This document shows, piece by piece, positions 5,279 to 62,235 of a stretch of DNA of 64,000 bases. The position numbers and the translations under genes were made by a program. Every line of letters begins with the position of its first letter. Within the stretch, counting starts at the first letter, position 1. Below the pieces are notes generated by a model. The model ran no database searches. It had not been told where the DNA came from and saw only the letters and a list, made by a program, of their open reading frames with translations. The stretch spans positions 1,293 to 65,292 of the forward strand of contig JAQICZ010000014.1 in NCBI GenBank assembly GCA_027858295.1, read 5' to 3'. The stretch is from Nanobdellota archaeon. GTDB lineage: Archaea; Nanobdellota; Nanobdellia; Pacearchaeales; GW2011-AR1.

Positions 5279-6001
5279 TTAATCCAATTCCACATATAAA
5301 TAATAAGCAGTAGAACCACTAAACCCACTAGCCCCATTTTCAGGAACAATCATTTGAAAATCATAAGCAGTCCCGTCATAACCAACAGCATCCTCTTCTA
5401 AAATAGCAGCATAAACAATATCTGCACTATCATATAACGCAACTTCTTCAAAAGATGAACTTGATTGCCCTGTGCTATTATAAGTATTAACAGTATGCTG
5501 ACAATTTGTAAATTGAGTCCCCGCAACAAAGAAAGGAGAATGAACATTATCATCAAATGTAGCAGTAATATTGTCTGAAATTCCTGAATGACTCATCGCA
5601 GTATTTTCCGTCTCTAAATCAGTACTATCAGCACAAGCAATTGATCCCCAAACCGGAGTAGTTATTTTTCTCGTAGCATAAACACGCCCACTCACAGAAG
5701 CCAAAGTCCAATCATAAATAGTATTTGCTGAAGAATCCTCCAAAGTAAAAGCCCCCACAACATTTCCGACAAAAGCCTTCCACTTATAATTCTGCATATT
5801 AGCCGTTAAATTAAAAGTTGAAATAATCCCACCAGAAACATTAACCATCTGAGCCCCCACTGCTGTCTTCGTCTCATTAGTCCCAAAAACCAATCCATCA
5901 GGACCACTCGGAGCAACCGCCGAAATAAATGCAGCACATAAAATAAACATTAAGCCTGCTACTAAAAGTAAACCCCCTCTCTTCCCATTTGTTCTCCCCA
6001 T
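5279..6001 (-). CDS. Family A secreted protein (paralog of 17337..18128, 18203..18928 and 62582..63268).
   Basis: The start is placed at the ATG at 6001 (MGRTNGKRGGLLLVAGLMFILCAAFISAVA). That gives a Sec-type signal peptide and a length matching the paralogs. The track's 341-aa ORF reads through upstream repeat DNA. The C-terminus is YYLYVELD. Confidence 0.8.
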   Translation of the reverse strand: MGRTNGKRGGLLLVAGLMFILCAAFISAVAPSGPDGLVFGTNETKTAVGAQMVNVSGGIISTFNLTANMQNYKWKAFVGNVVGAFTLEDSSANTIYDWTLASVSGRVYATRKITTPVWGSIACADSTDLETENTAMSHSGISDNITATFDDNVHSPFFVAGTQFTNCQHTVNTYNSTGQSSSSFEEVALYDSADIVYAAILEEDAVGYDGTAYDFQMIVPENGASGFSGSTAYYLYVELD

Positions 6002-6277
6002 AAACCTTTTTTCCGACAAATCGCTTCCCCAGACTGATTTACATTGAAAACTTTTCCAAGGGTTTTCAATTGTCTGTAAAGTAGTCAACAATCGATTTGA
6101 CCTGTCTGAAAAAAGTTTTCTCATACGCAACAGCGAATGATTCCTTCTTTTATCTCCCATTCTCCCCCTAAACCTTTTTTCCGACAAATCGTTTCCCAAT
6201 CGATTTGACCTGTCTGAAAAAAGTTTTCTCATACGCAACAGCGAATGATTCCTTCTTTTATTTCCCATTCTCCCCCA
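5995..6277 (-). repeat. Tandem upstream modules, each carrying its own GGGGGAG SD and ATGGG. Two 108-bp units plus a 54-bp C-box insert.
   Basis: Units start at 6090 and 6198 (aatcgatttgacctgtctgaaaaaagttttctcatacgcaacagcgaatgattcc...cattctccccc). ATGs lie at 6268, 6160 and 6001. The C-box gaaaacttttccaagggttttc is at about 6046..6067. Confidence 0.85.
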
Positions 6278-6285
6278 TGTTTTTA

Positions 6286-6474
6286 TCATTTTTTTGCCAA
6301 CCAAAGATTTCCTTTTTTACTCAACCAGCCCCGAGTATATAACTTTTGAAGATATTTATCAGCAGTATTCCAACTCATATTCCCAGACTTTGCAATTTCA
6401 GAAGCATTCAACCAATGATTCTTCTTAAGCAAAATTACCAAAATTGTTTTTTCAAAATGACTTAACTCAATCAT
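6286..6474 (-). CDS. Small winged-helix DNA-binding protein (62 aa).
   Basis: Shows the HTH-like pattern LNASEIAKSGNMSWNTADKYLQKLYTRGWL. It resembles 33823..34026 in size and pattern, and overlaps the upstream ORF by 4 nt. Confidence 0.55.
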   Translation of the reverse strand: MIELSHFEKTILVILLKKNHWLNASEIAKSGNMSWNTADKYLQKLYTRGWLSKKGNLWLAKK

Positions 6475-11923: not shown

Positions 11924-12298
11924 TTAAACTCTAGCTCTATCAAAAATCTTCCGCTTAAACTTAGCTTGCCGACCATAATTTAAAATTAAACCAATTTCCT
12001 TATCAGTAGCTCTTAAATAATTTAATAACTGAGCTTCATCAGAAACAGAAAGCTCCCTACTGGCCTTAATTTCAACAACAACATTTCCCCCAACTACAAA
12101 ATCAGCAATATAATCACCAACCACAACCCCCTCATAATAAACCTTAATCGGAAACTGATTTTCATAAGTTAAACCAGACTTCTCAAATTCAATCATCATA
12201 GCCCTCTCATAAACCTTCTCCAAAAAACCATAACCCAAAGTATTATACACCTTGTAAAATATTCTAATAACCTCCTTAGTTATCTCTTCATGCTTCAT
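11924..12298 (-). CDS. GxxExxY protein (PD-(D/E)XK_3-like small protein).
   Basis: Carries GYGFLEKVYERAM (the GxxExxY motif), VVVEIKA and GLILNYG. Confidence 0.8.
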   Translation of the reverse strand: MKHEEITKEVIRIFYKVYNTLGYGFLEKVYERAMMIEFEKSGLTYENQFPIKVYYEGVVVGDYIADFVVGGNVVVEIKASRELSVSDEAQLLNYLRATDKEIGLILNYGRQAKFKRKIFDRARV

Positions 12299-12359
12299 AG
12301 AATACCCCTCTTCTAAATATTAATAAGTTATATCAAAAACTTTTATCCCTCATATCTCA

Positions 12360-12408
12360 ATCCGTAACATTCGTCCAATCCGCGAGCAAAAATGCCATAA
12401 TAAAATAA
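12360..12408 (-). repeat. Direct-repeat partner of 11877..11925, flanking the GxxExxY gene.
   Basis: Both copies end in ATCCGCGAGCAAAAATGCC(T/A)TAATAAAA. Confidence 0.8.
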
Positions 12409-12411
12409 TTA

Positions 12412-12590
12412 CAAAAAAAAAGGAGGACTCAAAACCGAAATTTCTTGTCCTCCAACCTAAGAACCGAAGCTCAAAGGAATCCAAAACCGAAGTTTTGAAT
12501 CTCTACCTCAACCGAAGTTGGGCAGGAGACCATACCGAAGTAAGGTCCTCAGTCAACCGAAGTTAACTGGAACTAACCGAAGTTAGTAAC
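12412..12590 (-). ncRNA. Candidate ncRNA made of 7 consecutive hairpins, 6 capped by UUCG (CGAA on the plus strand). It ends in a GC-rich stem plus a U-tract.
   Basis: Stems on plus-strand coordinates: 12572..12587, 12550..12569, 12528..12547, 12507..12522, 12479..12500 and 12456..12477. The terminal hairpin GGAGGAC...GTCCTCC is at 12422..12453, followed on the minus strand by T9. Confidence 0.6.
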
Positions 12591-16069: not shown

Positions 16070-16117
16070 TTACGCCACCGGAGCTACACGCCCACCAAAC
16101 TCAATATTACCTTCACT
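16070..16117 (-). pseudogene. Remnant of the last 15 codons plus stop of a family B gene.
   Basis: It encodes SEGNIEFGGRVAPVA*, against CEGNIEFGGRVAPSN* at the 3' end of 16328..17335. The core ccaccaaactcaat(a/g)ttaccttcac is nearly identical. An upstream module directly precedes it. Confidence 0.7.
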
Positions 16118-16119
16118 AA

Positions 16120-16300
16120 ATAAAATTTCGTCAAAACTTTTCCAAGGGTTTTGACTGCATATAAATTTTCATTTTCCTATACACCAAAGCGAATAGAATT
16201 TTTTCTTTAAAACTTTCCCCCGACGAATTTACATTGAAAACTTTTCCAAGGGTTTTCAATTGCCTGTAAATTTGTCCACAAGGGTTTTAAAGTGTCTCTA
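16120..16300 (-). repeat. Two copies of the recurrent upstream module (A/B/C boxes).
   Basis: aaaacttttccaagggttttgac is at 16133..16155 and gcgaata at about 16189. A second C-box, gaaaacttttccaagggttttcaattgcctgtaaa, lies at about 16237..16270. About 55 nt of it nearly match 6035..6085. Confidence 0.8.
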
Positions 16301-33822: not shown

Positions 33823-34026
33823 TTATTTAATAAATGACCACAAGTTCATTCGCCCGACTCTAAACCCATTCACCTTTCCAGCAATCTGAAGCATCAAACA
33901 ACGAGTCTGCACAGAATGCCACGGCTTATTTAATTTAATAGAAATATCTTGAGTAGAAACAAGCTGCTCGCTAGAACTTAATAATTTTACAATTTTCCCC
34001 TGTAATTCATCCCCTTTAACAGTCAC
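33823..34026 (-). CDS. Small winged-helix DNA-binding protein (67 aa, GTG start) directly upstream of the giant gene.
   Basis: KIVKLLSSSEQLVSTQDISIKLNKPWHSVQTRCLMLQIAGKVNGFRVGR has a wHTH-like pattern. An AGGGGAAG SD lies 8 nt upstream. Confidence 0.55.
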   Translation of the reverse strand: MTVKGDELQGKIVKLLSSSEQLVSTQDISIKLNKPWHSVQTRCLMLQIAGKVNGFRVGRMNLWSFIK

Positions 34027-34034
34027 TTGATTCT

Positions 34035-34131
34035 TCCCCTAAATTTTTTCATTTAAATCGTTTTCCAATCGATTTAAACTTGCATGAAAAAGTTTTCTCA
34101 TACGGCAAAGCGAATGAGATCCCCAAATCAT
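34035..34131 (-). repeat. Copy of the recurrent upstream module ahead of the wHTH gene.
   Basis: cccctaaatttttt...aatcgatttaaact..tgaaaaagttttctcatacggcaaagcgaatga. The box order matches that at 6090..6190. Confidence 0.8.
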
Positions 34132-57247: not shown

Positions 57248-58438
57248 TCATACACTCATCACCGCCCCAAAAACAATATTTCCCTCACATACCCCCCCCA
57301 CCTTTTCAGGGACATAAACTCTCCAATATGTTGATTTATATGCATCCTCGAATAAATCGTTCTGTCTATATTGCAAATTAAAATTATTCGTAAAAATATT
57401 ACTAGTCAAATTGTTGTAGTTGATCTCGAACTCCCCAAGTGTTAAATCCCCAAAAATTGAAGAAGCTAAATTATACTTTTCATAATAAACTGGCAAATTA
57501 TTACCAGTAGAACAATTCATAGCAAGGTTATCTCCGGGTGTTGATCCATACCCATACAAATTCAAATCAACCTCGACATTCCCTCGATTAAGGATAACGA
57601 CTTCAGACTCATTAGAGACTTCCTGGCTAGACAAGTTTCCAAATGAAATAGCCTCTTGAATTTCCAAAGATAGTAAAGGATTAACATTTACATCATCAAT
57701 TCCAGAGCCTGTACTGGATGGATCGTCAACTCTCATCTGACAATTCCAATTTCCAACATTAGCATAATACCAGACATCAAAAGAACAGGTAATCTTAGAC
57801 TGATTTTCATCTCCATAACTATTATTGATTTCACAACTTGAATTTGAATAATGTTTATTATTGTCATTTGTATCTCCAATAAAGGAATTTGAAGTATCAT
57901 AAAATTCAGCAACAGCATTGCTTAAGACTTGTCCTTCATACTCACGAGCAACTCCCTCACAAACAACTTCCCTCGTGAAATTCGTAGCTAAATCTATTTC
58001 ATTTACAGTTAAATTGAAAGAATCATCGACCAAAACAAATTCAAATTCCGGAGCAACATTCAAAGTTAAATTGGGAGCAATATTATATCCGGCTCCAGTA
58101 ACTAATACATTTACAGCACTAGACAACATCTCTCCAGTCGCTTCAAACACACCCACACTTAAAACATCGCCTACTATACAAGGTGTTGCAAGCATTTCAC
58201 AATCAATCAAATAAAAATCATCGGTATAAGAATTACCATTCGGACCAACAACATCACTTGCATTATCGAGCCCATCACTTGTAAAATTCCATAAAGTAAC
58301 AACCTTATTATTTGCACTCCCAGTCCCACTTCCCCCATCAACATACCCAGTAATCCAATGCGCAGAACTCACCATCGGTAAAATAAACAAGAAACTAATA
58401 ACTAATAACCAACAACCAATAACTAGCTTACTTCCCAT
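57248..58438 (-). CDS. Family B secreted protein.
   Basis: The start is placed at MGSKLVIGCWLLVISFLFILPMVSSA (ATG at 58438), preceded by GGGGGATTTTAAGA. The C-terminus is TYWRVYVPEKVGGVCEGNIVFG. Confidence 0.75.
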   Translation of the reverse strand: MGSKLVIGCWLLVISFLFILPMVSSAHWITGYVDGGSGTGSANNKVVTLWNFTSDGLDNASDVVGPNGNSYTDDFYLIDCEMLATPCIVGDVLSVGVFEATGEMLSSAVNVLVTGAGYNIAPNLTLNVAPEFEFVLVDDSFNLTVNEIDLATNFTREVVCEGVAREYEGQVLSNAVAEFYDTSNSFIGDTNDNNKHYSNSSCEINNSYGDENQSKITCSFDVWYYANVGNWNCQMRVDDPSSTGSGIDDVNVNPLLSLEIQEAISFGNLSSQEVSNESEVVILNRGNVEVDLNLYGYGSTPGDNLAMNCSTGNNLPVYYEKYNLASSIFGDLTLGEFEINYNNLTSNIFTNNFNLQYRQNDLFEDAYKSTYWRVYVPEKVGGVCEGNIVFGAVMSV

Positions 58439-58676
58439 TCTTAAAATCCCCCATACAAAATTTCGTAAAAACTTTCCCAAGGGTTTTTACCTGGCTGAAA
58501 TTTTGGCACGCCATATTACCAAAACGAATGGCCGGGATTTTACTTCCCATCCTTAAAATCCCCCATACAAAATTTCGTCAAAAACTTTTCAAAGGGTTTT
58601 TGACCTGCCTGAAATTTTGGCACCCATATACCCAAGCGAATGGTCGGGATTTTACTTCCCATTCTTAAAATCCCCC
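58425..58676 (-). repeat. Tandem 112-bp upstream modules: two full units plus flanking partial copies. Each ends in GGGGGATTTTAAG(A/G)ATGGGAAGTAA.
   Basis: ATG triplets lie at 58438, 58550 and 58662, an exact 112-nt spacing. I estimate about 88% identity between the units. Confidence 0.9.
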
Positions 58677-60829: not shown

Positions 60830-60925
60830 TTTAGTCTTTATCCCCTTTACAATCGAGCCCTACTTGCCCAAATAATCTGGGGGAGTTATCGACTTTTTCA
60901 CCTAATTGTCTGCCCATACTTAATT

Positions 60926-62139: not shown

Positions 62140-62235
62140 CCCTAAACCTTTTTCCCCGTTGAAAGTTTTCCAAGGCTTTCACCCTGTCTGAAAAAAGTTT
62201 TCCCATACACCGAAGCGAATGGTTAATTTTAGCCC
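62140..62235 (-). repeat. Copy of the recurrent upstream module.
   Basis: ccctaaaccttttt..gaaagttttccaaggctttc..ctgtctgaaaaaagttttcccatac..gcgaatgg. Confidence 0.8.

Follow-up and report, generated by a model that had tools for sequence, protein, structure and literature searches.

A self-nesting hairpin repeat, probably a REP-like interspersed family, ahead of a secreted-protein gene of a Nanobdellota archaeon

BOX elements of Streptococcus pneumoniae consist of boxes, with internal modules in tandem whose number varies, and the ERIC (or IRU) sequences of enterobacteria have longer forms that arise via insertions at fixed internal sites. Both are intergenic and often co-transcribed with their neighbours, and we know of no transposase for either. 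The REP, BIME and REPIN sequences of Proteobacteria are palindromes tagged with GTAG or CGTC (PMC3733652, PMC12306157). Correia (NEMIS) elements and other MITEs (miniature inverted-repeat transposable elements) of prokaryotes are small non-autonomous repeats that fold into hairpins, lie beside genes and can alter their expression (PMC10969869), and members of the IS91 family insert after CTTG or GTTC without target duplication, have subterminal palindromes and form single-stranded circular intermediates (PMC13181058). Here we analyse a 64,000-nt stretch of contig JAQICZ010000014.1 (positions 1,293 to 65,292; hereafter the window) from the genome of a Nanobdellota archaeon (GCA_027858295.1), and principally the spacer ahead of a gene for a secreted protein of family A, which a preliminary description had taken for a duplicated promoter or leader module. 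We put at about 0.72 the probability that this region constitutes a short array, made up of a lineage-specific interspersed hairpin repeat, the TTGG-loop hairpin, which is similar in kind to REP, BIME and BOX sequences and spreads by loop insertion and tandem duplication. The repeat is undescribed in the literature that we searched.

The repeats occupy the 284-nt spacer between the family A gene and its upstream neighbour, a small winged-helix gene whose stop codon lies 10 nt ahead of the first junction box. This box, GGGGGAGAATGGGA, opens each of two tandem units (6276-6263 and 6168-6155; Table 1). After excision of a 60-nt insert (6088-6029) from the proximal unit, the two are identical at 106 of 108 positions, and direct repeats of 80 nt (6089-6168 and 6197-6276, 99% identity, spacing 108) and 38 nt (5992-6029 and 6160-6197, 95% identity) mark the duplication. 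The repeats 6276-6169 and 6168-6001 thus bear out the tandem-duplicated module with an extra insert that had been described; the insert itself is real, with a length of 60 nt instead of the 54 bp given for it as a "C-box". It splits the loop of its host hairpin between ATTG and GGAAG, and the empty counterpart of this loop is found in the distal unit at 6192-6200. The box words picked out in the preliminary description also exceed chance, with 0 expected and 3 and 5 found in the window, and single-sequence folding of 5985-6285 gave better structures than shuffled sequences on both strands (z = -3.4 and -4.5).

At its proximal end the array runs into the gene. The terminal bases of the proximal unit (GGTTTA-TG) merge with the gene's first ATG, and a diverged copy of the junction box (TGGGGAGAACAAATGGGA, 6000-5983) opens the gene itself. 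Because the junction box opens both units and, in its diverged form, the gene, three ATGs stand in one frame, and an open reading frame (ORF) finder reports a fused ORF of 341 aa (5279-6304). Family A orthologues in five genus-mates and a paralogue within the window begin at the signal peptide, so the N-terminal extension of the 341-aa product is an artefact, as had been supposed. The two ATGs of the gene itself are 12 nt apart; the one at 5989 lies at the normal distance from a preceding GGGGAG and lines up with the ATGGGA that the units carry. The true start of the family A gene may be this ATG and not 6001.

The core of the repeat is a hairpin of about 65 nt, comprising an outer stem, an 8-bp stem a, a 5' bulge AGRCAG, a stem b of 8-11 bp and the loop nTTGGnAAA. 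Single-sequence folds place these elements, from the outside inwards, as a short outer stem, a one-base bulge, stem a, the 5'-side bulge AGRCAG, stem b and the loop, and the outer stem comes in several variants (GTGCC/GTATG, GGAC/GTC, AAAAC/GTTT and others). A stem of at least 8 bp closes the loop nTTGGnAAA at about 130 sites; the stems that close a control word reach 7 bp at most. About 86-100 instances of the C-box word are present in the genome, with outermost bases that vary complementarily (G..C, C..G, A..T and T..A). An alignment of 58 distinct copies yielded a covariance model, R1, with 65 positions and 22 pairs. A structure-blind MAFFT alignment contained 231 double-sided changes, compared with 101±7 after shuffling (0/500), and its covariation score of 0.431 fell to at most 0.19 when the pairing partners were slid by 1-3 columns; the corresponding figures for a model-based alignment of 52 matches were 186 against 78±7 changes and 0.433 against at most 0.17. 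It is on these pair counts for a named structure, and on the single-sequence folds, that we base the structure. Copies are 64-66 nt long, with stem b and the loop accounting for differences of 1-2 nt, and this variation, together with the compensatory pairs, rules out a conserved peptide frame at the level of the family.

A pointer to how the repeat spreads is that copies lie within copies. Units of exactly 60 nt (T[G/T]GAC...GTC[G/T]GG) are found inside the loop of another hairpin in 34 cases, every time with TTG of the host loop on one side and G(G/C/A)AA on the other. The hosts belong to at least 8 classes with differing stem b sequences. Identity amounts to 88.6% among nested units (87% across host classes) and to 63.7% among host stems (55% across host classes); since the nested units are more alike than their hosts, similar units appear to have entered hairpins that already existed and had diverged, a pattern that indicates site-specific insertion. 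Filled and empty loops differ by exactly 60 nt, the sole ambiguity being a 1-nt G, and the termini share only GAC/GTC. The 5' flank of the nested units is CTTG in 17 cases, ATTG in 7 and CGGG in 3 (two nested units in tandem), and 24 of the 30 units of the TGGAC/TTGAC type follow CTTG or ATTG without any duplication. The array ahead of the family A gene conforms to this pattern: nothing interrupts the distal loop, ATTG-GGAAACG, and the proximal loop, ATTG-(60 nt)-GGAAGCG, holds the insert and shows no duplication of bases.

R1 matched at least 142 sites in the 1.35-Mb, 64-contig genome (E<=0.01), a lower bound because 150 candidates were scored and because outer hairpins split by an insert escape the model. 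A hairpin lies within 400 nt of 26 of the 128 contig ends (20%, against 3.5% expected), from which it follows that the repeats break the assembly and that the true copy number is higher. Short repeats with at least 10 copies make up about 3.9% of the genome (the share of short repeats being roughly 4-6%), and other contigs likewise hold tandem arrays, at periods of 83, 113 and 60 nt, unlike the local one. The CATTCGC box of the preliminary description belongs to a class of A-modules, CATTCRC-N-TATGR, with about 205 members genome-wide, 96 of which have a TTGG loop within 120 nt downstream. Eight R1 matches fall within the window, every one on the gene strand; they include all the further copies listed in the preliminary description (Table 1) apart from a "degenerate copy" at 60830-60925, which the covariance model did not detect. 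Copies are nearly always intergenic (about 90% lie outside ORF calls), the majority are more than 100 nt from a start codon, and 42 of 103 face away from the next gene, with 12 in convergent spacers. N-terminal hydrophobic segments were not significantly enriched in the genes downstream of copies (31% against 23%, p=0.16), and so, of the proposal that the module is dispersed ahead of secreted-protein genes, the dispersal stands, genome-wide, and the tie to such genes is unsupported.

Outside this genome the repeat is nearly absent, even among relatives. Among 40 relatives, R1 found 10, 4, 2 and 1 copies in four genus-mates and zero in the remaining 36 (18 other genus-mates and 18 genomes of other genera). 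A 20-nt core, the loop-and-stem word, occurred at chance level in 185,579 species genomes, a metagenome collection and viral contigs, and phage and plasmid records held no match to the repeat. The sole real exception was a 3.8-kb contig (JAQIBR010000093.1, 3849 nt) binned in a Bacteroidales metagenome-assembled genome. It carries two copies, further modules of the repeat set at 96-100% identity, and genes for tRNA and a sequon-rich surface protein; its unique genes have no close homologue in our archaeal assembly, and it is probably a mis-binned DPANN contig. A hybrid copy on this contig has an outer 5' half joined to an inner 3' half at the loop, so loops also recombine. Nor are positions shared between orthologous genes. 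The family A orthologues of the five genus-mates and the paralogue within the window are separated from the preceding gene by a spacer of ~100 nt without a hairpin, and, conversely, in two relatives a hairpin precedes the start of RRM-protein and SIMPL-like genes by 11 nt, and these genes are without one in this genome. A module dedicated to family A genes, as had been proposed, is at odds with these module-free orthologues and paralogue and with the occurrence of copies in both orientations. We also observed that in one genus-mate (contig 11, about 12100-12500) a copy abuts a duplicated tRNA-gene 3' end (...CCCTGTCCCTCACA twice), which looks like the attachment-site scar of an integrated element.

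Both reverse transcriptases (RTs) of the genome belong to diversity-generating retroelements (DGRs), which lie outside the window and have been reached by the repeat. The DGR on contig 51 (14009-15700) is complete: its target gene ends in a variable repeat (VR), a template repeat (TR) about 200 nt downstream differs from the VR only at its adenines, and an RT of 349 aa with the motif GNLTSQ follows the TR. A TTGG-loop hairpin lies in the TR-RT spacer. At the 27 related RT loci that we examined this spacer is about 15-35 nt long and holds no R1 hairpin, and the copy on contig 51 is therefore an insertion. In a second, degenerate DGR on contig 20 (48116-49100) we could still recognise the VR and TR; the 5' half of the RT is missing, with a long-form composite of the hairpin repeat abutting the break. 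Homologues of the DGR RT are found in 59 of the 151 genomes of the order. The presence of a copy beside the TR at both RT loci raised the possibility that the hairpin is the cognate spacer RNA of the RT and was retro-mobilised; we rejected it on the grounds of the 27 related loci without a hairpin.

In behaviour the family resembles REP, BIME, BOX and ERIC sequences: it is non-coding and mostly intergenic, occurs in both orientations, accumulates in tandem and nested arrays and is greatly expanded in a single genome. The resemblance to REP, BIME and REPIN sequences lies in short extragenic imperfect palindromes with a hundred or more copies, compensatory stems and a lineage-restricted distribution, in mosaics of direct and inverted units, and in broken assemblies. 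Unlike those sequences, the archaeal unit of ~65 nt has three stacked stems, a fixed 6-nt bulge and an invariant loop of 9-10 nt, and it resides in a DPANN archaeon; neither a GTAG nor a CGTC tag is present, the ends being TGGAC or GTGCC (5') and GTCGGG or GTATGGG (3'), there is no RAYT (Y1) gene in the genome, and copies nest in their own loop. With BOX and ERIC it has no sequence similarity, and what is inserted in the archaeal repeat is, unlike in those families, a full family copy, always in the hairpin loop. Insertion 3' of a CTTG-type tetranucleotide, the lack of target duplication and hairpins near the ends are shared with the IS91 family (PMC13181058), but the archaeal units are non-coding and only 60-65 nt long, their hairpin is unlike the ends of the archaeal IS91-like copies, and the local Y2 transposase is degraded. 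What sets the repeat apart from MITEs is that its terminal inverted repeats go no further than GAC/GTC, that it lacks a target-site duplication and that no parent insertion sequence (IS) shares its ends.

Several other classes of element were considered and set aside. Rfam had no match at gathering scores in the window and gave noise alone at E<=10 in 5900-6400, and no likeness to a K-turn, a C/D box or a ribozyme was found either by eye or with Rfam. Integron attC sites carry the outer boxes R''(RYYYAAC)...R'(GTTRRRY) in that order and are located at the 3' ends of cassettes; in the repeat the GTT/AAC arrangement is reversed (GTTAAAT...ATTTAAC) and restricted to one sub-type, and copies occur in tandem or nested rather than one per gene. 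A link to tRNA introns was rejected as well, the two intron-containing tRNA predictions being without a copy and no bulge-helix-bulge being drawable at the nesting junction.

What, then, is the array doing ahead of the family A gene? Stacked promoters or operators had been suggested in the preliminary description. A fuller form of this role, in which each unit would be a promoter or a site for the adjacent winged-helix regulator and duplication would multiply the input to the gene, draws on the small winged-helix genes that adjoin two copies (Table 1) and on a weak likeness of stem a of the local units (AGAAAACTTTTTTCAG) to the B recognition element (BRE)/TATA consensus AAAnCTTTTAAAA. We derived this consensus from the upstream regions of 14 tRNA genes of this genome and used it as a weight matrix with a 10-bit cut-off; 70 of the 139 matches of at least 10 bits fall 21-40 nt before protein start codons, and the peak about 30 nt before starts means that the matrix captures real promoters. 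On the gene strand of 5950-6320, however, the best score was 5.4 bits outside the units and 4.0 bits within them, no promoter-like match recurs at a fixed place on the same strand around 95 copies, and nothing promoter-like lies within 40 nt of the family A start. Covarying arms and a conserved loop moreover speak of a folded single strand and not of a double-stranded operator, the majority of copies do not adjoin a winged-helix gene, and many are directed away from genes, all of which makes this role highly improbable. Transcription probably reaches the family A gene by read-through from upstream, and its mRNA leader would then contain the repeats. Many mRNAs of this archaeon are probably leaderless, to judge from the matrix matches; genes behind hairpin repeats show Shine-Dalgarno sequences of the GGAGG type instead. 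We give least credence to an assembly artefact, in which a dispersed repeat was mis-assembled, or to translated MG(N/D)KRRNHSLLRMRKLFSDRSNRL leader peptides. Although 20% of contig ends carry a copy and repeats do break assemblies, between the two units there are 2 mismatches in 108 positions and a unique 60-nt insert, which gave the assembler unambiguous junctions, and tandem arrays with periods of 83, 113 and 60 nt exist on other contigs. Similarly, the units are open in one frame, but length differences of 1-2 nt and compensatory pairs leave no conserved frame, and the orthologous proteins start at the signal peptide. Recombination scars between paralogous 5' regions had been a further suggestion, in spirit the nearest to our reading; the repeats do recombine and duplicate, as members of an interspersed family instead of remnants of such regions.

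There are also observations that weigh against an interspersed mobile repeat. Mobility is read from nested copies, from the insertion in the DGR spacer and from lineage-specific expansion, not from an orthologous site that is empty in one strain and filled in another. RNAalifold predicts no pairs on the MAFFT alignment and stem a alone on the model-based one, a poor recovery that we attribute to weak A/U-rich stems and to sub-families offset by one or two columns. No mobilising enzyme was identified. Searches for Y1_Tnp (RAYT/IS200; PF01797) gave 0 matches in this 88%-complete genome, with responsive controls, the TnpB family is absent from the genome, and there is no multi-copy IS or autonomous element, the sole long duplicate being a surface-protein gene. 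The only HUH candidate is an IS91-family Y2_Tnp remnant on contig 6 (11356-11846, outside the window; Pfam 28.1 and 75.2 bits), which lacks its N-terminal third, is split by a frameshift and is followed directly after its stop codon by a GC hairpin and GTTC, unlike the TTGG-loop repeat. Sense copies are favoured 29:12 in co-directional spacers (p=0.012), gene context being taken here from crude ORF calls, and in two relatives a copy lies 11 nt upstream of a start codon, directly ahead of a Shine-Dalgarno sequence of the GGAGG type. These last two findings would suit a cis-acting RNA leader, that is, a 5'-untranslated or intercistronic element at whose invariant UUGGNAAA loop and AGRCAG bulge a global RNA-binding protein would tune many mRNAs, and which selection would have spread. 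The conserved loop and bulge, the covarying stems and the 3' arm that ends 3 nt before ATG 6001 point the same way, and a structured leader would be special in an archaeon whose mRNAs are otherwise mostly leaderless. Such a leader is nevertheless hard to reconcile with the copies that face away from the next gene or lie in convergent spacers, with the distance of most copies from a start, with positions that are not kept at orthologous genes, and with a copy number of at least 142 here against 0-10 in relatives; nested and tandem pile-ups and the insertion in the DGR spacer suit a selfish repeat better, and the sense strand shows no surplus of G·U relative to A·C (17 against 24 in stems a and b outside the internal loop, which gives no pointer to the folding strand, be it RNA or DNA). 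We therefore consider a selected leader unlikely, and an RNA-level role of some kind may exist alongside the sense bias and the start-proximal copies. A specific version of the mechanism that we favour would make the repeat a miniature rolling-circle element, mobilised in trans by an IS91-family Y2 HUH transposase. Nested units lie directly 3' of CTTG or ATTG without duplication and have a C(T/G)GG end after the hairpin, the junctions agree with the rules of the IS91 family (PMC13181058), and Y2_Tnp occurs in this genome and in 0 of the 40 relatives, with intact copies in 8 of 400 other genomes of the phylum (9 of 401 with this one). Set against this, besides the damage to the local gene, are its own end, a GC-rich GCCCGAAGGGC hairpin with GTTC as opposed to an AT-rich TTGG-loop hairpin, and the ends of the archaeal IS91-like copies in general (GCCCGAAGGGC...GTTC, or ...GAACTTTCTTG), which are unlike the hairpin. 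None of the 8 intact archaeal Y2_Tnp copies has an R1 match beside it, the four relatives with few repeats carry no Y2_Tnp, and the correlation rests on one genome. Miniature IS91 derivatives were absent from the literature searched, the link to IS91 is hypothetical, and we judge this version quite doubtful. More broadly, and still tentatively, the family could represent a novel type of non-autonomous mobile element in archaea, one that inserts into the loop of fellow family members (TTG^G), so producing self-similar nested hairpins, and that is driven by a single-strand-specific nuclease-ligase, whether an IS91-like Y2 HUH enzyme in trans or an enzyme not yet recognised.

On balance the array looks like the product of a selfish, self-inserting repeat rather than a control element built for the family A gene. 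In such a scheme the units would be mobile now, or would have been recently, as folded single strands, and an enzyme recognising the hairpin would cut and join at TTG^G in the exposed loop, so that no target duplication arises. Arrays such as 6001-6276 would then grow by unequal recombination or slippage between units, and this growth would have taken the ATGGGA start region of the gene along with it. Most likely the repeats ride passively in the spacer between the winged-helix and family A genes and are transcribed within the leader of that mRNA. If they affect mRNA stability or translation at all, this would be incidental and would not explain why they are there.

DPANN archaea are thought to be streamlined, and this genome is about 0.4-0.8 Mb larger than those of its genus-mates. 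A self-nesting hairpin without a recognisable transposase would be an archaeal counterpart to the long-unsolved problem of REP, BOX and ERIC sequences, and its invariant loop, with a defined insertion point, offers a biochemical handle. The repeats also have consequences for their surroundings, in that they supply ATGGG start contexts to neighbouring genes and disrupted a DGR. In practical terms they fragment assemblies and create false long ORFs and false "promoter modules", and they need to be masked in annotation.

Table 1. Repeat units, hairpins and adjoining genes in the window (positions in the 64,000-nt stretch)
Feature	Position	Strand	Details
Family A secreted-protein gene	5279..6001	-	First ATG at 6001, second in-frame ATG at 5989
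Small winged-helix gene, upstream neighbour	6286..6474	-	62 aa; weak HTH_45/TrmB matches
Distal tandem unit, 108 nt	6169..6276	-	Junction box GGGGGAGAATGGGA, CATTCGC hairpin and complete simple hairpin with loop ATTGGGAAA
Proximal tandem unit, 168 nt	6001..6168	-	The 108 nt of the distal unit plus 60-nt nested insert
Nested 60-nt hairpin unit, TTGAC...GTCTGG	6029..6088	-	Loop CCTTGGAAAA; covariance model 68.4 bits
Distal hairpin	6166..6230	-	Covariance-model match, 63.4 bits; stem a 6216-6223/6174-6181; bulge AGACAG 6210-6215; stem b 6201-6209/6183-6191; loop 6192-6200
Proximal outer hairpin, interrupted by insert	6006..6115	-	Stem a 6108-6115/6006-6013; bulge 6102-6107; stem b 6093-6101/6015-6023
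A-module hairpin, distal copy	6229..6248	-	TCATTCGC-TGTT-GCGTATGA
A-module hairpin, proximal copy	6121..6140	-	
Two copies	16113..16280	-	16113-16176 and 16216-16280 (nested type)
Copy ahead of second small winged-helix gene	34035..34099	-	Winged-helix gene at about 33828-34026
Tandem pair, period about 113 nt	58448..58625	-	58448-58511 and 58560-58625; unit end ATGGGA
Copy read through by ORF finder	62140..62204	-	437-aa ORF to 62239

Two further arrangements of the repeat were seen. In the array at 58425-58676, the ATGGGAAGTAA of each upstream unit sits in the loop of an extra hairpin (GGGGATTTT/AAAATCCC), and the last unit has real coding sequence (MGSKLVIG...) in place of its 3' arm; from these sequences, the downstream gene appears to have taken its start codon from the TATGGG/ATGGGA end box of the repeat. 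Elsewhere in the genome, a composite that recurs in about 12 copies consists of a GTTGACAATTCTC-type hairpin placed head-to-head with a long-form copy via a linker of ~50 nt (...TGGTGGATGATTTTGCGTTAA...). Examples at contig ends are found on contig 29 (12-174), contig 12 (2773-2836) and contig 33 (23287-23482), and the arrangement is reminiscent of the inverted REP pairs of BIMEs.

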